DNA of 64,000 nucleotides from Escherichia coli. GTDB taxonomy: Bacteria; Pseudomonadota; Gammaproteobacteria; Enterobacterales; Enterobacteriaceae. The notes under the pieces are model-generated. The model searched no databases, was not told where the DNA came from, and was given only the letters and a program-made list of their open reading frames with translations. Made by a program: the position numbers and the translations under genes. This document shows, piece by piece, positions 11,657 to 45,629 of the stretch (positions are counted from its first letter, which is position 1; each line of letters opens with the position of its first letter). The stretch lies in the NCBI RefSeq assembly GCF_041248615.1, contig NZ_CP158426.1; one strand, 5' to 3'.

Positions 11657-11977
11657 AACCCTCTCCTTAGCTTATACAGATATCATTGAGTGACCGGTGT
11701 TGAGAAATCCGGTGGTTTAGGGGGATAGAGCAACAATCGCACCACTCTTGCCAGGTTTGGCGGGAAATATAAAAAAATGTGAGGCGGCTCGAAACTTAAG
11801 GGCTTTTTGTGAATGAACTCACAGGTGCTAAATGAGAATTAAAATCACTCCTGAAAATTATTATTGCCAGCCCATTTATCAATTTTTCTCTTTTCTCAAA
11901 ATCAGTGATTCCTTATCATTATGATAATGAGTGCCGGAAGGATTAAATATTTGAACGCAATCGTTTAACTACGTTTT

Positions 11978-12556
11978 CTAAATTTCAGTATACCTTTCCT
12001 TCGCTGTAATAAAGTCGTCCGGAGTATCAATATCTAAAATTATTTCTGCATTTTCTATTTCGACGGAATAATGATCTCCCATAAGGAGTGCCTGACGCAT
12101 ATTGGTGACATTGGGTCGTTGGATTGCCTGCATCAGGCATGGTTTTGACACTAAAATCGGATGGCCGGGGATGCCATTATGGAGTGGCAGTATTGCGCCA
12201 TCATTTCGTAACGACCAGATTTTTCTAAAAATATCGATGGTGAGGGTTGGCATGTCACCGTGGGTGAGAAAACAATGTTCTGTTTGCACTGCGGGTACTG
12301 CGGCCTTGACGGATGTTAGTAAACCCTGCGCATAATCTGGGTTGTGAATAATAGTGATATTGCTCTGGTTCGCATAACGTTCGTGCAGTTCATTACCACG
12401 ATAGCCGGTGACTAAAATAATTCGGCTACAAAACTGCAACGCATTTTTGATACTTGTATCAAGAATTGTTCCCTGTTCCCAGGGTAACATCATTTTCCAT
12501 TGCCCCATTCTTGATGATAATCCGGCAGCGGTAATTATACAGTCGATGGCTGACAT
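11978..12556 (-). CDS. mocA: Molybdenum cofactor cytidylyltransferase
   Basis: 192-aa ORF starting MSAIDCIITAAGLSSRMG (MobA-like nucleotidyltransferase N-terminus). Confidence 0.85.
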   Translation of the reverse strand: MSAIDCIITAAGLSSRMGQWKMMLPWEQGTILDTSIKNALQFCSRIILVTGYRGNELHERYANQSNITIIHNPDYAQGLLTSVKAAVPAVQTEHCFLTHGDMPTLTIDIFRKIWSLRNDGAILPLHNGIPGHPILVSKPCLMQAIQRPNVTNMRQALLMGDHYSVEIENAEIILDIDTPDDFITAKERYTEI

Positions 12557-12658: not shown

Positions 12659-13429
12659 GTGAAAAGTATAGTTGACCCATCGGCATTAGTCATTGATTTA
12701 GGTGCGCAGAAACGTCCCACTGTGATTTCTGTTGTTGGTGCTGGGGGGAAAACCAGCTTGCTTTTTTGGCTGGCAGAACTGCTCCAGGCTAGCGGCAGGC
12801 GTGTGTTAATCACGACGACGACACATATGTTTATGCCAACGTCTCACTGGCCCGTGGTTTTCTGTCGTGATCCCGCCATGCTTCCTCATGCGTCTCTTAC
12901 ATCCCCCATTTCATTTTGTTTTCACAGCTGGAAAGCGAACCAGGGAAAAGTGCAGGGATTTACGCCAGAAGCGATTGATGCACTGGTGCAACGACCAGAG
13001 TGTGACGTAATTCTCATTGAAGCAGATGGCTCGCGTGGAATGCCGTTAAAAGCGCCTGATGAGCACGAACCTTGCATACCCAAAAGCAGTTGCTGCGTGA
13101 TTGCTGTGATGGGAGGACATACTTTGGGCGCGAAAGTGAGCACAGAAAATGTCCATCGCTGGTCGCAGTTTGCTGATATTACCGGGTTAACACCTGATGC
13201 AACCTTGCAACTGAGCGATCTCGTTGCGCTGGTTCGCCACCCTCAGGGGGCGTTTAAAAACGTACCGCAAGGTTGTCGGCGAGTCTGGTTCATTAACCGT
13301 TTTTCTCAATGTGAGAATGCGATTGCACAAAGTGAGCTCCTTCAACCGCTGCAACAACACGACGTAGAGGCAATCTGGCTGGGCGATATACAAGAACATC
13401 CTGCAATCGCGCGCAGATTTGTGAATTAG
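12659..13429 (+). CDS. yqeC: P-loop protein of the selenium-dependent molybdenum hydroxylase accessory set (YqeC family)
   Basis: 256-aa ORF with GTG start; Walker A-like VVGAGGKTS. Confidence 0.8.
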   Translation: MKSIVDPSALVIDLGAQKRPTVISVVGAGGKTSLLFWLAELLQASGRRVLITTTTHMFMPTSHWPVVFCRDPAMLPHASLTSPISFCFHSWKANQGKVQGFTPEAIDALVQRPECDVILIEADGSRGMPLKAPDEHEPCIPKSSCCVIAVMGGHTLGAKVSTENVHRWSQFADITGLTPDATLQLSDLVALVRHPQGAFKNVPQGCRRVWFINRFSQCENAIAQSELLQPLQQHDVEAIWLGDIQEHPAIARRFVN

Positions 13430-19009: not shown

Positions 19010-20206
19010 TTAAGGTGCTACAGCGTGTTTGCCTTCCCAGACAACTTCGCGGTAGTGCTTCACGTCGGTGTCGCCTTCAGTGCTGATAACCAGCACCACG
19101 GCATCTTTGTTCAGCGCCAGTTTTTCCATCAGGCTTTGACGTTGCGGGTGATAATGAACCGCTGCGAGAACGCCCAAACCGACAGCGCCGGATTCACCGG
19201 AGATGATGCGCGGGTCGTTGCCGTACGGATTACCCAGCACGCGCATACCTAATGCGGCAACGCTGTCCTGGCAGGAGATGAATTGGGTGGCGCAGTTACG
19301 TAGGATTTCCCAGCCCAGCGGGTTAGGTTCGCCACAGGCCAGGCCTGCCATGATGGTGGCCATATCACCGCCAACGTTGACGATGTCGCCTTTGACGCCG
19401 GAGCGATAAATACAGTCAGCTTTGTCAGGTTCAACAATAATGCTGTGCAGATTTTGCGGGCTATAGACGTCGACCAGATAACCCAGCACACCACCGGCCA
19501 TTGCTCCGACACCGGCTTGCAGCAGAACGTGCGTCGGGGTTACGCCCATTTCACGCATTTGCTCGACGGCTTCATCTGCCAGGGTTGCGTAGCCTTGCAT
19601 GATCCAGGTTGGGATTTTGGTGTAACCTTCCCATGCCGTGTCCTGTACCACTTCCCAGCCGTGCTGCTGCGCGTGTTGCATGGTCAGGCGAACGGTATCG
19701 TCATAGTTCATATCCGTGACGATGCACTCGGCACCGAGGTTCAGAATGGCGTCAACGCGTTCCTGAGCAGAACCTTTCGGCATGTAAATCACCGCATTCT
19801 GTCCGAGTTGCTGTGCTGCCCACGCCACACCGCGCCCGTGGTTGCCGTCGGTGGTGGTCGCGAAAGTCATTTTTTCGCCGATGGCATTTTTCAGGTGCTC
19901 AAATGACAGCGTTTCGATATCAAGATGATATTTTTCACACAATAATTGAGCGATGGCGTACGCACCGCCAAGCATTTTGAAGGCGTTCAGACCGAATCGT
20001 TTTGATTCGTCTTTGACGAGAATTTTCTTCACACCAAAAAGGTTTGCGAGATCGTCCAGCGCACAAAGCGGTGTTGGGCGATAACCAGCTATTTTCTGGT
20101 GGAACTGGCGCGCCAGTTTGGCCTGGCTTTGCGAAAAGAGCGGTGATGTTTCGCCGTTGAAAAATTTGTTATCGGCGATATCAATCTTCAATGAGAAAAC
20201 GGACAT
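19010..20206 (-). CDS. ygeX: Diaminopropionate ammonia-lyase (PLP-dependent)
   Basis: 398-aa ORF, fold-type II PLP enzyme-like. Confidence 0.85.
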   Translation of the reverse strand: MSVFSLKIDIADNKFFNGETSPLFSQSQAKLARQFHQKIAGYRPTPLCALDDLANLFGVKKILVKDESKRFGLNAFKMLGGAYAIAQLLCEKYHLDIETLSFEHLKNAIGEKMTFATTTDGNHGRGVAWAAQQLGQNAVIYMPKGSAQERVDAILNLGAECIVTDMNYDDTVRLTMQHAQQHGWEVVQDTAWEGYTKIPTWIMQGYATLADEAVEQMREMGVTPTHVLLQAGVGAMAGGVLGYLVDVYSPQNLHSIIVEPDKADCIYRSGVKGDIVNVGGDMATIMAGLACGEPNPLGWEILRNCATQFISCQDSVAALGMRVLGNPYGNDPRIISGESGAVGLGVLAAVHYHPQRQSLMEKLALNKDAVVLVISTEGDTDVKHYREVVWEGKHAVAP

Positions 20207-20263: not shown

Positions 20264-21454
20264 TTATTTCACGCGTTCTTGCGCTTCTTTCAGCAGTTGC
20301 TCGAGCAGTGCACCTGGTTTGGCGTATTTACGGGACAGGATCATCGCGGCGATGATATAAGGCTTCCAGCTGGCTTCTTTGTAGGTAGCGATACGGTATT
20401 TTTCGAATACGCCTTCAGTCACTTCACCTTCTTTACAGGATACGCCGCTGATATCAGCTGGCAGGCAGTGCATGTACAGGGCTTCGCCATCACGGGTCAG
20501 TTCCATCATCTCTTCAGTACAATGCCAGTCTTTGTGTTGCGCGTTCTGTGCCAGACACTGTTTTTCCAGTGCTTTTAAGCCTTCGTGATCGTTCGCACGC
20601 AGCAATTCAGTACGCTCTTCCATCACTTTGTAAGGTGCCCATGACTTCGGATAAACGATGTCTGCGTCTTTGAAGGCTTCTTCCATGCTGGTGACCTGAC
20701 GGAAGCTACCACCGGAGGCTTTAGCATTGTTTTTCGCCACTTCAACCACATCCGGGATCAGGTCGTAGCCTTCCGGATGGGCCAGGGTGACATCCATACC
20801 GAAGCGAGTCATCAGACCGATGATGCCTTGTGGTACAGAGAGCGGTTTGCCATAGCTTGGAGAGTAGGCCCAGGTCATGGCGATTTTTTTACCTTTCAGG
20901 TTTTCCAGTGAACCAAAGTGTTCACGTAACCACGCGAGGTCAGCCATTGACTGAGTCGGGTGGTCAATATCGCATTGCAGGTTCACTAAAGCCGGACGCT
21001 GTGGCAGTACACCCTGCTTGTAACCGTCATCAAGTGCAGCGCCAACTTCACGCATATAGGCGTTGCCTGCGCCCAGATACATATCGTCGCGAATACCAAT
21101 AGCGTCGGCGCAGAAGGAGATCATATTGGCGGTTTCACGCACGGTTTCGCCGTGAGCGATTTGTGATTTGCCTTCGTCGAGATCTTGTTGTGCAAGGCCG
21201 AGCAGGTTAAGCGCGGAAGCATAAGAGAAGCGGGTACGGGTGGAGTTGTCGCGGAATACGGAAATACCTAATCCACTATTAAAGACTTTGGTTGAGATGT
21301 TTTCAGCACGCAGTGCTTTTAATGCTGCGGCAACGTCCAGTACTTGTTTCAGTTCATCTGGCGTCTGTTCCCACGTTAACAAAAAATCTTTCTCGTGAAG
21401 GTGAGAGGTCAGCGAATTGATATCCTTAATCAGCTCATTAACAGTTTTCATCAT
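20264..21454 (-). CDS. ygeW: Carbamoyltransferase (ornithine/aspartate transcarbamylase-like)
   Basis: 396-aa ORF; carbamoyl-phosphate-binding STRTR motif (DNSTRTRFS). Confidence 0.85.
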   Translation of the reverse strand: MMKTVNELIKDINSLTSHLHEKDFLLTWEQTPDELKQVLDVAAALKALRAENISTKVFNSGLGISVFRDNSTRTRFSYASALNLLGLAQQDLDEGKSQIAHGETVRETANMISFCADAIGIRDDMYLGAGNAYMREVGAALDDGYKQGVLPQRPALVNLQCDIDHPTQSMADLAWLREHFGSLENLKGKKIAMTWAYSPSYGKPLSVPQGIIGLMTRFGMDVTLAHPEGYDLIPDVVEVAKNNAKASGGSFRQVTSMEEAFKDADIVYPKSWAPYKVMEERTELLRANDHEGLKALEKQCLAQNAQHKDWHCTEEMMELTRDGEALYMHCLPADISGVSCKEGEVTEGVFEKYRIATYKEASWKPYIIAAMILSRKYAKPGALLEQLLKEAQERVK

Positions 21455-21544
21455 AAAGTCCCGGTAGTGGAATGACAGGCAAAGTGGTTTATTTCACTGT
21501 GACTTGCCAAAGTGATTGGTGTTTTCACAGCTATACCTGGGACT

Positions 21545-21560
21545 AACAATAAGTGTGCCA
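21545..21560 (-). promoter_or_regulatory. Candidate sigma54 (-24/-12) promoter for the ygeW operon
   Basis: Minus strand reads TGGCAC-actta-TTGTT, about 90 bp upstream of the ygeW start. The -24 element is perfect; the -12 element is TTGT instead of TTGC. ygeV next door encodes a sigma54 activator. Confidence 0.35.
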
Positions 21561-21929
21561 GAATTATCCGCGCGGCTGAAAAAGACTAATTTGACGGATA
21601 ATGTGTGGGGTTGATCACAAATTGATGCCAGCTTCTGGTTGTTTGTAAAATACGAAAACGTTTGGCTTTTTTTATCACGTTATTTATTTGCTGCTAAGTA
21701 TCAGAAATAAGATAAAGGGGCAGGCTATCTCTCTTCAGTTTGATAAACTCACCGCCGTAATTCTCATATTGATATAGAAATGTGATATCTCTTCCATAAT
21801 TTCATTAGAAAATGATAAAAATCTTATGTTTTTATCAAAGCCAATTTCGCCTGAGTTAATATCATCATGATCTGTGAACCATCAACGTCTTCAATGATCG
21901 ACTTTTAAGTAAGTCTGGAAGGTAAAGCT

Positions 21930-23708
21930 ATGGAGCTTGCTACTACGCAGTCAGTATTGATGCAAATTCAACCGACAATTCAGCGTTTTGCCAGAATGCT
22001 TGCCAGCGTTTTGCAGCTTGAGGTTGAGATCGTTGATGAAAACTTGTGTCGCGTTGCCGGAACGGGCGCGTATGGGAAGTTTCATGGTCGCCAGTTGAGC
22101 GGCAACTCACGCCTGCTCCGCCACGTCCTGGAAACGAAAACTGAAAAAGTTGTGACACAGTCTCGCTTCGATCCCCTTTGCGAAGGTTGCGATAGTAAAG
22201 AAAATTGCCGCGAAAAAGCATTTCTGGGTACGCCTGTCATTTTACAGGGTCGTTGTGTTGGGGTGATAAGTTTGATTGCCGTTACCCACGAGCAACAAGA
22301 GCATATCAGTGATAATTTACGCGAATTTTCTGATTATGTTCGCCATATATCCACCATTTTTGTTTCGAAACTTCTGGAGGAACAGGGGCCAGGAGATAAC
22401 ATCAGTAAAATATTTGCGACCATGATCGATAATATGGATCAGGGCGTATTAGTTGTAGATGATGAAAATCGGGTTCAGTTTGTTAATCAGACTGCCTTAA
22501 AAACACTTGGTGTTGTGCAAAATAATATTATTGGGAAACCTATCCGTTTCAGACCATTAACATTTGAGAGTAATTTTACCCATGGACATATGCAGCATAT
22601 TGTTTCATGGGACGATAAAAGTGAATTAATCATTGGTCAATTGCATAACATTCAGGGCCGACAATTATTTTTAATGGCGTTTCACCAATCGCATACCAGT
22701 TTTTCTGTAGCAAATGCACCTGATGAACCGCATATTGAACAATTGGTTGGCGAGTGCCGTGTTATGCGGCAATTAAAACGACTCATTAGCCGTATTGCAC
22801 CCAGCCCATCCAGCGTTATGGTGGTTGGTGAAAGCGGCACGGGTAAAGAAGTCGTCGCCCGTGCAATCCATAAGTTGAGCGGAAGACGGAATAAACCCTT
22901 TATTGCTATCAACTGTGCCGCGATTCCGGAGCAGCTTCTGGAGAGCGAACTGTTCGGTTATGTTAAAGGTGCATTTACTGGCGCTTCTGCCAACGGTAAA
23001 ACAGGGTTGATTCAGGCGGCGAATACGGGCACGCTGTTTCTCGATGAAATAGGTGATATGCCATTAATGTTGCAGGCTAAATTACTGCGCGCTATTGAGG
23101 CACGTGAAATTCTGCCGATTGGTGCCAGTAGCCCAATACAAGTCGACATTCGCATCATTTCTGCAACTAATCAGAATTTGGCCCAGTTCATTGCCGAAGG
23201 TAAATTCCGCGAAGATCTCTTCTACCGACTTAATGTTATCCCGATAACTCTGCCACCGCTGCGTGAACGTCAGGAAGATATTGAACTATTGGTGCATTAC
23301 TTTTTACATCTGCATACCCGTCGTCTGGGATCGGTTTATCCTGGCATTGCTCCCGATGTCGTCGAAATATTGCGTAAGCATCGTTGGCCCGGAAACCTGC
23401 GCGAGTTAAGCAATTTGATGGAATATCTGGTTAACGTGGTTCCTTCAGGTGAAGTTATCGACAGCACGCTATTGCCGCCAAATCTGCTGAATAATGGCAC
23501 AACGGAGCAAAGTGATGTAACAGAGGTCAGTGAGGCGCACCTGTCACTCGATGATGCGGGCGGCACGGCGCTGGAGGAGATGGAAAAGCAAATGATCCGC
23601 GAGGCGCTTTCACGTCATAACAGCAAGAAGCAAGTTGCTGATGAACTGGGCATCGGCATTGCTACGCTCTATCGCAAGATTAAGAAATATGAGTTGTTAA
23701 ACACATAA
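21930..23708 (+). CDS. ygeV: Sigma54-dependent transcriptional activator (bacterial enhancer-binding protein)
   Basis: 592-aa ORF; AAA+ Walker A GESGTGKE, sigma54-contact GAFTGA motif, C-terminal HTH. Confidence 0.9.
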   Translation: MELATTQSVLMQIQPTIQRFARMLASVLQLEVEIVDENLCRVAGTGAYGKFHGRQLSGNSRLLRHVLETKTEKVVTQSRFDPLCEGCDSKENCREKAFLGTPVILQGRCVGVISLIAVTHEQQEHISDNLREFSDYVRHISTIFVSKLLEEQGPGDNISKIFATMIDNMDQGVLVVDDENRVQFVNQTALKTLGVVQNNIIGKPIRFRPLTFESNFTHGHMQHIVSWDDKSELIIGQLHNIQGRQLFLMAFHQSHTSFSVANAPDEPHIEQLVGECRVMRQLKRLISRIAPSPSSVMVVGESGTGKEVVARAIHKLSGRRNKPFIAINCAAIPEQLLESELFGYVKGAFTGASANGKTGLIQAANTGTLFLDEIGDMPLMLQAKLLRAIEAREILPIGASSPIQVDIRIISATNQNLAQFIAEGKFREDLFYRLNVIPITLPPLRERQEDIELLVHYFLHLHTRRLGSVYPGIAPDVVEILRKHRWPGNLRELSNLMEYLVNVVPSGEVIDSTLLPPNLLNNGTTEQSDVTEVSEAHLSLDDAGGTALEEMEKQMIREALSRHNSKKQVADELGIGIATLYRKIKKYELLNT

Positions 23709-27371: not shown

Positions 27372-27824
27372 GCATGATTCACCCGTAGCGGTTGCTTCCC
27401 GCGCTTCCATAGAAATCCCCTCGATTTGAACATTTGGTTCTTATGGCAAAGATTTAGTCTAAGCAGGCAAGATTTACGCCAGAAACGACGATAAGCGTTA
27501 GGGGAGGTAGGAAGTGTGATGACGTTAAAAAAACACAGATATGATACGAAACAGGACTCTGAATAGGGGCAGTGATACGTATCAATATGAGTGGCGATAA
27601 AATCAATGTGATAAATTGGGATTATTACGCATCAGGATGGGAAATAGGGTAAAAAGTCAGGAAGTTCGATACCTCTACAGCGAATATTTTGCTGATGATA
27701 CTTCCCTTTGCCAAATGAAATTAACCTCTTTCTCTATTACCACGTTTTTCCAGAAGCAAGAGATTGGGTATCAAGAGGCTGGCTGCTATGATAAGGCGTC
27801 TTGTTTTTTAAGCGAGGAAAGATT

Positions 27825-29469: not shown

Positions 29470-29790
29470 TTACTTCTTAATATCGCCAGTGCATTGATAT
29501 TCGATAGTCACAAGTGTTTGCATACAACCAGATGAAGAAGGTTGTGAACATTGAGAAGTGAATCCACCAAAAGGCTCGGCTCCTGAATATCCCCAAGCGG
29601 CACAACGCGCTTTGGCTGCATTCATGCCTTGTTGTGGATCTACAACAGGACTTTCAAACATACCGTAAGAATAACTCATCCTAACTGTGCCGTCTGATTT
29701 GCTTCCACCAGTTGGAACGAGTTGTTTTTTTGTTGCACATCCAGAAATAATCAATGTTGAAGCAAGTAACAGCATTAAACTTTTGCGCAT
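29470..29790 (-). CDS. Putative Cys-rich lipoprotein (106 aa), unknown function
   Basis: Signal peptide MRKSLMLLLASTLIISGC with lipobox ISGC; four further Cys in the mature part; low GC. Confidence 0.6.
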   Translation of the reverse strand: MRKSLMLLLASTLIISGCATKKQLVPTGGSKSDGTVRMSYSYGMFESPVVDPQQGMNAAKARCAAWGYSGAEPFGGFTSQCSQPSSSGCMQTLVTIEYQCTGDIKK

Positions 29791-29934
29791 GTAAATAATC
29801 CCAAGAGATAATGGTTATGTATTGATTTAAAGCGTTTTTAGATTAATGCATTAACTTAGCAAAATTAAGTCTTTTCTGATTGTTTGCAGAGTAAAAATGA
29901 GTTGCTTTCGAAATTATTTCGGATGTTTATTGTA

Positions 29935-30102
29935 TTACGGTTTTTCAAACCGTCTAACTATTGTCGCTATTGAATGGGCAATAATAGCAAGAGGATTCAT
30001 TTCGTCATTGGAGGCAACAAAAAGTCGGTAACTGATAGCTACAACGAATGAAGCAATAACGAGAAAGCGGATAGTGCTAAGATGTTTTGAAGATAAATGC
30101 AT
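29935..30102 (-). CDS. Possible small membrane peptide (55 aa), speculative
   Basis: Manual translation MHLSSKHLSTIRFLVIASFVVAISYRLFVASNDEMNPLAIIAHSIATIVRRFEKP; one predicted TM helix; AGGGGG 4 nt upstream of ATG; the RBS lies in a CCCCCT/AGGGGG hairpin. Below the 60-aa track cutoff. Confidence 0.25.
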   Translation of the reverse strand: MHLSSKHLSTIRFLVIASFVVAISYRLFVASNDEMNPLAIIAHSIATIVRRFEKP

Positions 30103-30442
30103 AACGCCCCCTAAATGAATGTGAGGGGGATTAAATCATGCAAATTTGTTGTGTGCAATACTGGTAATTTATCCTAATAGTCTACTATTCACCTCAATCT
30201 ACGTCAACCAATATTTGATGTAGATTTGATTTTCTTTTAAAAACAATATTTTGCAATTTGTTGGGTTTTGGGGTTAGGTTGTTTTTTGGACGTTTCCATC
30301 AAGTGTAAAGATACGTTTAGCCTTCATAGTGAGTTCAGTTACTGTCTTTTTCTCTGAAATCGGCGCATACGTGATCATCGCTTAACGAGAAGAGCAGCGC
30401 CGTCAGGTCCATGCAGCGACAATTCTGAAATATCAGGAGGCA

Positions 30443-44366: not shown

Positions 44367-45629
44367 ATGCCACATTCACTGTTCAGCACCGATACCGATC
44401 TCACCGCCGAAAATCTGCTGCGTTTGCCCGCTGAATTTGGCTGCCCGGTGTGGGTCTACGATGCGCAAATTATTCGTCGGCAGATTGCAGCGCTGAAACA
44501 GTTTGATGTGGTGCGCTTTGCACAGAAAGCCTGTTCCAATATTCATATTTTGCGCTTAATGCGTGAGCAGGGCGTGAAAGTGGATTCCGTCTCGTTAGGC
44601 GAAATAGAGCGTGCGTTGGCGGCGGGTTACAATCCGCAAACGCACCCCGATGATATTGTTTTTACGGCAGATGTTATCGATCAGGCGACGCTTGAACGCG
44701 TCAGTGAATTGCAAATTCCGGTGAATGCGGGTTCTGTTGATATGCTCGACCAACTGGGCCAGGTTTCGCCAGGGCATCGGGTATGGCTGCGCGTTAATCC
44801 GGGGTTTGGTCACGGACATAGCCAAAAAACCAATACCGGTGGCGAAAACAGCAAGCACGGTATCTGGTACACCGATCTGCCCGCCGCACTGGACGTGATA
44901 CAACGTCATCATCTGCAGCTGGTCGGCATTCACATGCACATTGGTTCTGGCGTTGATTATGCCCATCTGGAACAGGTGTGTGGTGCTATGGTGCGTCAGG
45001 TCATCGAATTCGGTCAGGATTTACAGGCTATTTCTGCGGGCGGTGGGCTTTCTGTTCCTTATCAACAGGGTGAAGAGGCGGTTGATACCGAACATTATTA
45101 TGGTCTGTGGAATGCCGCGCGTGAGCAAATCGCCCGCCATTTGGGCCACCCTGTGAAACTGGAAATTGAACCGGGTCGCTTCCTGGTAGCGCAGTCTGGC
45201 GTATTAATTACTCAGGTGCGGAGCGTCAAACAAATGGGGAGCCGCCACTTTGTGCTGGTTGATGCCGGGTTCAACGATCTGATGCGCCCGGCAATGTACG
45301 GTAGTTACCACCATATCAGTGCCCTGGCAGCTGATGGTCGTTCTCTGGAACACGCGCCAACGGTGGAAACCGTCGTCGCCGGACCGTTATGTGAATCGGG
45401 CGATGTCTTTACCCAGCAGGAAGGGGGAAATGTTGAAACCCGCGCCTTGCCGGAAGTGAAGGCAGGTGATTATCTGGTACTGCATGATACAGGGGCATAT
45501 GGCGCATCAATGTCATCCAACTACAATAGCCGTCCGCTGTTACCAGAAGTTCTGTTTGATAATGGTCAGGCGCGGTTGATTCGCCGTCGCCAGACCATTG
45601 AAGAATTACTGGCGCTGGAATTGCTTTAA
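44367..45629 (+). CDS. lysA: Diaminopimelate decarboxylase
   Basis: 420-aa ORF, PLP-dependent decarboxylase. Confidence 0.9.
   Translation: MPHSLFSTDTDLTAENLLRLPAEFGCPVWVYDAQIIRRQIAALKQFDVVRFAQKACSNIHILRLMREQGVKVDSVSLGEIERALAAGYNPQTHPDDIVFTADVIDQATLERVSELQIPVNAGSVDMLDQLGQVSPGHRVWLRVNPGFGHGHSQKTNTGGENSKHGIWYTDLPAALDVIQRHHLQLVGIHMHIGSGVDYAHLEQVCGAMVRQVIEFGQDLQAISAGGGLSVPYQQGEEAVDTEHYYGLWNAAREQIARHLGHPVKLEIEPGRFLVAQSGVLITQVRSVKQMGSRHFVLVDAGFNDLMRPAMYGSYHHISALAADGRSLEHAPTVETVVAGPLCESGDVFTQQEGGNVETRALPEVKAGDYLVLHDTGAYGASMSSNYNSRPLLPEVLFDNGQARLIRRRQTIEELLALELL

Follow-up and report, generated by a model that had tools for sequence, protein, structure and literature searches.

The sigma-54 element upstream of Escherichia coli ygeW, its conservation across enterobacterial genera and candidate YgeV sites in the ygeV–ygeW spacer

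Two other pairs of E. coli, prpR–prpBCDE and norR–norVW, share the layout considered here: the gene of a sigma-54 activator is transcribed divergently from its sigma-54 target, and the activator sites lie in the common spacer. At prpBCDE, CRP is required as well, and norR itself is autoregulated through the NorR sites. The ygeV–ygeW pair of Escherichia coli is arranged in the same manner, but the prpR and norR pairs belong to other activator families, respond to other signals and use other DNA motifs. In the ygeV–ygeW spacer, moreover, the candidate activator palindrome is further from the promoter (~234 bp), with no IHF consensus in the intervening DNA.

A third relative is found in clostridia. 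The activator DioR was predicted and named by Nie, Dong and Yang (2019), with sites such as ATTTATCATAATGATAAGG and TATTATCATTTTGATAATA (supplement of PMC6615313) that precede the sigma-54 promoters of dpaL, ygeW-ygfK-ssnA-ygeY, yqeC-...-xdhC and xdhABC in Clostridium and Clostridioides (PMC6615313). DioR is still termed uncharacterised (PMC11448449).

The sigma-54 site of ygeW is itself already published. Table 1 of Bonocora et al. 2015 (PMC4591121) contains the identical 17-mer, CTGGCACACTTATTGTT, as the sigma-54 ChIP-seq site OS30, which is occupied in vivo. Its peak (3004190) and motif centre (3004185, plus strand) are 5 bp apart, and ygeW is given as the downstream gene. The OS30 peak is weak (fold above threshold, FAT, of 3), and the site carries no EcoCyc flag, i.e. 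it was at that time neither predicted nor confirmed in EcoCyc. The authors call such sites ‘binding sites’, not promoters, and warn that many of them perhaps never fire (PMC4591121). OS30 and the element described below are the same object, equal in 17-mer, orientation and predicted start; only the strain differs. In vitro, reconstituted sigma-54 RNA polymerase produces a genomic SELEX peak within the ygeV/ygeW spacer, with a height of 53%, or of 55% when NtrC is added (Shimada et al. 2021, PMC8743547). The YgeV iModulon of PRECISE-1K, a set of co-expressed genes, contains xdhABC and ygeWXY; ygeV itself is absent from it (PMC10602906). Sigma-54 promoters upstream of xdhABC and ygeWXY are attributed in the same paper to Reitzer and Schneider (2001), and a requirement of ygeV for anaerobic uric acid consumption is attributed to Iwadate and Kato (2019) in 10.1101/2022.07.24.501321. 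In view of the ChIP-seq, SELEX and iModulon reports, the assignment of a sigma-54 promoter to ygeW is correct and is not new, and the detail added below is modest.

The ygeV–ygeW spacer and its sigma-54 element

The window, i.e. the whole stretch of DNA that was analysed (64,000 nucleotides), is from E. coli. Its positions 21300–22100 are 100% identical to strain TUM9803 and are inverted relative to MG1655, and 5181 of 5426 complete genomes carry the region. The coordinates of all features are collected in Table 1. The operon headed by ygeW has the order ygeW-dpaL/ygeX-ygeY-hyuA-arcC/yqeA, and the role of ygeW is in reductive uric acid degradation (PMC12507026). The gene begins with two tandem ATGs, at 21454 and 21451. 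The second one is the RefSeq start and the start that aligns with the orthologues, so the spacer extends from 21452 to 21929. A preliminary description of this DNA had given an AT-rich region of 475 bp, 21455–21929; its composition stands (37% G+C compared with ~50% in the window), and its limits have been corrected. The same description had named ygeV as a divergently adjacent sigma-54 activator gene, which proves right. The YgeV sequence contains a Sigma54_activat domain (E = 7.6e-71) with Walker A at residue 303, GAFTGA at residue 347 and a Walker B motif, followed by a C-terminal HTH_8 domain, and ygeW and ygeV are divergent in every genus compared (12 of 12). The N-terminal part of YgeV is a GAF-like and PAS region; candidate ligands are uric acid, xanthine and indole, the last one suggested by PMC9426417.

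Table 1. Features of the ygeV–ygeW locus and of related sigma-54 sites in the window
Feature	Position	Strand	Remarks
ygfK sigma-54 site GTGGTGCGATTGTTGCT	11729–11745	−	OS31 (PMC4591121); perfect palindrome at 11914–11926
ygeW (carbamoyltransferase)	20264–21451	−	NCBIfam equivalog, 825 bits; first gene of operon
Predicted transcription start of ygeW	21534	−	Predicted; 80–83-nt 5' leader
Sigma-54 −24/−12 element CTGGCACACTTATTGTT	21545–21561	−	Best matrix match of the window; same as OS30 17-mer
CRP-like site TGTGG-GGTTGA-TCACA	21604–21619		Centre at −77.5 from predicted start
Conserved block around palindrome	21740–21800		27 of 60 columns invariant, compared with 15% in spacer
Candidate YgeV activator site, palindrome TCTCATATTGATA (T[AC]TCA-N3-TGA[TG]A, 13 bp)	21762–21774		Centre at −234
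Second near-palindrome TATCATCATGATC	21860–21872		One mismatch to TATCA-N3-TGATA; 64 bp before ygeV start
ygeV, divergent sigma-54 activator	21930–23708	+	PAS, AAA+ with GAFTGA, HTH_8; no receiver domain
xdhA sigma-54 site CTGGCGTAAATCTTGCC	27466–27482	−	OS29 (PMC4591121); near-palindrome upstream at 27601–27613

Compared with the sigma-54 consensus TGGCAC-N5-TTGCW, the ygeW element has exact spacing, the GG (21559–21558) and the G of the GC, and its −12 element reads TTGT, with a T in place of the consensus C. The pattern TGGCAC-N5-TTGTT, which the preliminary description had placed on the minus strand about 90 bp upstream of ygeW, is indeed there: it has one exact occurrence in the window, at 21545–21560 of that strand, and the 3' end of the element precedes the ATGs at 21454 and 21451 by 91 and 94 nt, respectively. 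Taken alone, the bare pattern is weak evidence and is non-significant in 64 kb, where 0.30 matches are expected and where 25 of 100 shuffles contain at least one. Therefore, the site was assessed with a leave-one-out weight matrix and by comparison across species.

The matrix was built from 38–41 published intergenic E. coli sigma-54 sites (Bonocora et al.) with the ygeW site left out and, in a second run, with three other sites of the cluster left out as well. The ygeW site ranks first among the ~128,000 positions of the window, and its score (15.8–16.0 bits) coincides with the median score of 41 genuine sites. About 0.28 matches with this score are expected by chance per 64 kb, which translates into ~0.001 for the ygeW strand of the spacer. 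None of the other matrix matches in the window (7801, 32029, 45609 and 60961) is found in the published ChIP-site tables searched (PMC4591121). The predicted transcription start is the same whether the second G of the GG is taken as −24 or the rule of PMC4591121 is applied (19 bp downstream of the motif centre; distance to ygeW of 80); in MG1655 it corresponds to about 3004204. The 80-nt leader has no Rfam match and displays no riboswitch or conserved structure, its consensus fold amounting to only −1.7 kcal/mol.

For the cross-species comparison, a contig search with YgeV returned mostly generic activators and one true orthologue (L001), and a search seeded with the E. coli protein returned E. 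coli clusters only. Diverse genera were obtained by a homologue search seeded with an Enterobacter orthologue. The ygeW–ygeV loci compared are those of Enterobacter (two species), Cedecea, Pluralibacter, Serratia, Kluyvera, Intestinirhabdus, Raoultella, Trabulsiella, Atlantibacter and Citrobacter, counted here as 11 other genera, in which YgeV is ~70% identical to the E. coli protein. In all 11, the spacer has its best sigma-54 match on the ygeW strand, at a distance of 80–107 nt from the ATG. The consensus of the element across genera is YTGGCAC-RN-TTATTGTT. Fourteen of its 17 columns are invariant in the 12-way alignment, compared with 15.4% of all spacer columns. The −12 element coincides with the longest stretch of invariant columns in the entire spacer (9 nt, 21544–21552).

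The unusual T at −12 is invariant across the 12 genera as well. Among 42 published sense-oriented intergenic sites it is present in three, which are the ygeW site itself, pspA and pspG. The pspA and pspG promoters, marked as experimentally confirmed in EcoCyc, have the same TTGT for TTGC, but they are activated by PspF, belong to unrelated regulons and have a ChIP occupancy (FAT of 21 and 15) well above that of the ygeW site (FAT of 3). The invariance of this T and the presence of the same variant at the confirmed pspA and pspG promoters mean that TTGT is a tolerated natural form of the −12 element and no defect. Within the species, the 11–17 spacer substitutions of three divergent E. coli lineages all fall outside the 17-mer, the CRP-like site and the palindrome. 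The alignments are evidence that the ygeW element, its odd −12 base included, is under selection across genera.

Candidate activator sites and the CRP-like element

Upstream activator sites had been expected 80–150 bp upstream of the promoter. Nothing conserved of that kind is present in this zone; a palindrome cluster is found ~205–265 bp upstream of the predicted start instead. The sole inverted repeat of the 80–150 bp zone, ATTATCCG/CGGATAAT at 21563–21602, was rejected as an activator site because it is confined to E. coli and its close relatives. The palindrome that was retained as the candidate has its centre at −234 to −238 from the predicted ygeW start in all 12 genera. Its motif occurs 43 times in 304 kb, a 60-fold enrichment over the 0.69 occurrences expected, and 23 of the 43 are positioned 130–220 bp upstream of the sigma-54 sites of ygeW, ygfK or xdhA (0.04 in shuffled upstream regions).

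The palindrome is embedded in a conserved block with invariant runs at 21741–21746, 21781–21786 (TGATA/TATCA half-sites) and 21795–21798, and with a conserved CATAAT. The block, with its putative half-sites and its hexamer, is probably the full activator array and possibly overlaps promoter elements of ygeV. The second near-palindrome, TATCATCATGATC, is conserved in its ATGATA half alone (21860–21863 are invariant), and its role as a YgeV site that acts on ygeV itself is speculative.

For an activator site, the palindrome is remote from the ygeW promoter, and the ygeV start is just 162 bp away; the gene that it regulates could be ygeV instead of, or in addition to, ygeW. The presence of the same motif at three promoters that have no adjacent ygeV suggests that its roles include activation. 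As for the promoter of ygeV, conserved candidate −10 hexamers are located at 21795–21800 and 21857–21862. The sole sigma-70 match on the ygeV strand, TTGATG-18-TAAAAT at 21622–21651, was discarded, this stretch being non-conserved.

The CRP-like site, which is located between the palindrome and the sigma-54 element, agrees with TGTGA-N6-TCACA at nine of ten positions. It is kept as yGTGA-N6-yCrCA at −77.5 or −78.5 in 11 of 12 genera, with one or two mismatches in the other genera. The ~155 bp that separate it from the palindrome are variable in sequence, and their length is held within 3 bp in the 12 genera. A native Crp-binding site in the ygeV–ygeW spacer is mentioned, with no coordinates, by Tong et al. 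2025 (PMC12507026), who also describe repression of uric acid degradation by glucose. Their site is presumably the one at 21604–21619. The putative role of CRP at ygeW, suggested by this match and by one sentence of PMC12507026, is the weakest step of the model. An IHF consensus is absent from all 12 spacers scanned.

The palindrome at related promoters and in Clostridiales

The other sigma-54 sites of the cluster have a similar organisation. Upstream of the xdhA site, the half-sites are paired (TATCA-N3-TGAGT ... ACTCA-N3-TGATA). The ygfK palindrome is invariant and is found at −181 to −204, with a perfect CRP core at 11808–11823 (−97.5), between it and the promoter. The ygfT gene, which is outside the window, is in the second-hand account available the one gene reported as ygeV-dependent, and a palindrome was therefore predicted in its spacer. 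This was borne out: 8 kb around ygfT contain a single strict palindrome, the identical 13-mer TCTCATATTGATA, located 180 bp upstream of the ygfT sigma-54 site (OS32). No ygeV gene adjoins the palindromes of ygfK, xdhA or ygfT, and these three promoters have in common a weaker element, TTnnA-N6-TCrCA, at about −68. A further sigma-54 promoter, located inside yqeC, is validated and responds to nitrogen limitation (PMC4591121); a CRP-like site with one mismatch is found at −78.5 from it. Since the order of palindrome, TCACA-type element and sigma-54 site recurs at xdhA, ygfK and ygfT, it is proposed that the whole cluster forms one YgeV regulon.

The palindrome also matches the published DioR motif of Clostridiales, and it is present 120–190 bp upstream of strong sigma-54 promoters beside Firmicute homologues of YgeV (35–39% identity). 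In a Clostridium homologue (locus L002), the C-terminal region is 46% identical to that of YgeV, and the helix-turn-helix stretch LGIGIATLYRKI is identical. Among the products of the surrounding locus are xanthine/uracil permeases, subunits of xanthine dehydrogenase, an amidohydrolase and an M20 peptidase. The DioR regulon resembles that of YgeV in that a sigma-54 activator gene is found near dpaL, ygeW, ygfK, ssnA, ygeY, yqeB and xdh genes, and the DioR motif, TTATCA-N3-TGATAA, is located ~100–240 bp upstream of the −24/−12 element, as it is in the ygeW cluster. Unlike ygeW, the clostridial DioR promoters have the canonical TTGCT at −12; CRP is absent there, and the proteins are only 35–39% identical overall. 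From the shared motif and helix-turn-helix we infer that YgeV is to enterobacteria what DioR is to clostridia, with the palindrome as its predicted binding site; this link between YgeV and DioR is stated nowhere in the literature examined.

Proposed mechanism and alternative readings

That the ygeW operon has a −24/−12 promoter served by YgeV, as the preliminary description had it, agrees with the published binding, with the iModulon and with the conservation in 12 genera. It is very probable that 21545–21561 is the sigma-54 promoter of ygeW-ygeX-ygeY-hyuA-yqeA, whose products act late in anaerobic uric acid breakdown, and that it is activated by YgeV through the palindromes at about −234 with assistance from CRP. 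Sigma-54 RNA polymerase, the binding of which is published, would form a closed complex at the −24 GG and the −12 TTGT, and this complex would remain inactive until the AAA+ activator YgeV remodels it with ATP. According to the comparative evidence, YgeV would bind the palindrome cluster ~234 bp upstream (21762–21774 and the flanking half-sites) and would reach the polymerase by DNA looping. The CRP-like site at −77.5 probably provides a bend and ties expression to glucose starvation; CRP is proposed as the supplier of the bend because no IHF consensus is present.

Three other readings of the element have to be weighed against this one. A chance match in an AT-rich spacer would be in line with the occurrence of the bare pattern in 25% of shuffled windows, but with ~0.001 matches expected on the ygeW strand of the spacer, and with the binding published in vivo and in vitro and the conservation in 12 genera refuting it, its probability is close to nil. 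A genuine but idle site, bound by sigma-54 while ygeW is transcribed from an unrecognised CRP-dependent sigma-70 promoter nearby, is unlikely. The low ChIP signal (FAT of 3), the authors’ own warning about sites that never fire (PMC4591121), the non-consensus T at −12 and the proximity of a CRP-like site in a glucose-repressed pathway all speak for it. Yet the consensus scan of the ygeW strand reveals no usable sigma-70 promoter, its sole match overlapping the start codon. The only −10-like hexamer near the CRP-like site (GATAAT, 21564–21569) is not conserved outside E. coli, and a start near it would place the centre of the CRP-like site at about −54, a position that is neither class I nor class II. 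Furthermore, an idle site would hardly surpass the rest of the spacer in conservation across 12 genera or hold a fixed distance to the palindrome.

The promoter might also be real and respond to another activator, e.g. NtrC under nitrogen limitation, in which case the palindromes would be YgeV operators that autoregulate ygeV only. The nitrogen-responsive sigma-54 promoter inside nearby yqeC (PMC4591121), the position of the palindrome, 162 bp from the ygeV start as against 234 bp from the ygeW promoter, and the absence of ygeV from the YgeV iModulon (PMC10602906) would fit such an arrangement. Against it, the spacer contains no NtrC-like site (the best match is 8 of 14), the SELEX signal is not raised by NtrC (PMC8743547), and the same palindrome is found upstream of the ygfK, xdhA and ygfT sites, which have no adjacent ygeV, and of Firmicute sigma-54 promoters. 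This arrangement is therefore quite improbable.

A broader proposal, which goes beyond activation of ygeW by YgeV and is put forward tentatively, as somewhat less than an even chance, concerns the whole cluster. The three-part layout, with a palindrome ~130–240 bp upstream and a CRP-type element at −68 to −98 instead of IHF, may be common to ygeW, ygfK, xdhA and ygfT, i.e. to all sigma-54 sites of the cluster that are intergenic and directed towards a gene. Its DNA code would be the same as that of DioR, carried across phyla, and CRP, as a co-activator that bends the DNA, would place uric acid breakdown under glucose repression in enterobacteria. No description of a palindrome/CRP-type/sigma-54 design of this kind was found in the literature.

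What is added here to the published record is the evidence for selection across genera, the relocation of the probable activator sites to about −234 and the connection of YgeV with DioR through the motif; the general picture is unchanged from that in earlier publications. The candidate YgeV motif offers a handle for defining the YgeV regulon and ties YgeV to DioR. For use against gout, probiotic E. coli are being equipped with the anaerobic uric acid degradation pathway (PMC12507026), and the analysis marks the bases to keep or to swap when the ygeW promoter is rewired. The ygeW operon and its neighbours serve anaerobic uric acid degradation in gut bacteria, which affects the urate levels of the host. 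Control by sigma-54, YgeV and CRP, if confirmed, would account for the silence of the pathway in ordinary cultures and for its repression by glucose.

The ygeW–ygeV spacer and the YgeV protein

At ygeW two ATG codons stand in tandem (window 21451-21456). The preliminary description began the spacer at the first of them, which made it 3 bp too short, because the second ATG (21451) is both the RefSeq start and the one aligned with the start of all orthologues. An 8-bp inverted repeat is present in E. coli, in part also in Citrobacter, and absent from the remaining genera. YgeV (window 21930-23708), renamed IsrR, was termed an 'orphan response regulator' (PMC9426417); its Pfam matches are a PAS domain, an AAA+ sigma-54 interaction domain and HTH_8, plus a weak GAF-like one, and no receiver domain is among them.

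Coordinates of the features discussed (window positions unless a locus is named)
Feature	Location	Strand	Sequence or setting
Inverted repeat	21563-21570, 21595-21602		ATTATCCG/CGGATAAT; immediately upstream of -24 element
Candidate YgeV palindrome	13304-13316		TCTCAATGTGAGA; strict pattern match
Validated sigma-54 promoter	13060-13076	+	within yqeC
Perfect palindrome	19918-19930		TATCAAGATGATA; inside dpaL (ygeX) coding sequence
Same, Citrobacter	L088 8001		
TTnnA-N6-TCrCA elements	27545-27560, 11778-11793		
Same, ygfT region	L095 4673-4688		
Extra sigma-54 matrix matches (12-14 bits)	32029-32045	-	
	60961-60977	+	
	45609-45625	+	
	7801-7817	-	
MFS-gene region, Kluyvera	L083 11813		
MFS-gene region, Intestinirhabdus	L084 11794, 12154-12170		
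MFS-gene region, Raoultella	L085 11837, 11979-11995		

Other candidate sites in the window

In E. coli the candidate YgeV palindrome near yqeB stands between the validated sigma-54 promoter within yqeC, ~217 nt upstream of it, and the yqeB ATG, 161 bp further on; near the yqeB start the palindrome is kept as TCTCAAAnTGAGA in all 11 orthologous loci. The palindrome within dpaL, found in Citrobacter too, may have a regulatory role inside the gene, or it may be there by chance because the coding sequence is conserved. A different element, TTnnA-N6-TCrCA, is common to xdhA, ygfK and ygfT, with its centre near position -68 relative to their predicted starts, and is kept in the orthologues; CRP might bind it weakly, or it might serve another factor.

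The four extra matches to the sigma-54 matrix are probably not bound, since a search of the text of the ChIP-seq paper (PMC4591121) found none of them. One falls between yqeG and yqeH, two within genes (ptrA and ssnA) and one where aas and lplT overlap. Elsewhere in the window, an IS1 transposase gene (29543-30240) adjoins truncated ygeQ and a truncated gene for a winged-helix regulator; this insertion may be strain-specific.

A transporter gene beyond ygeV in other genera

In Kluyvera, Intestinirhabdus and Raoultella, the ygeV stop codon is followed by a palindrome, TATCACTCTGAGA, then by sigma-54-like elements and a gene for an MFS transporter of 549 residues. This gene is probably an additional member of the YgeV regulon, absent from E. 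coli.
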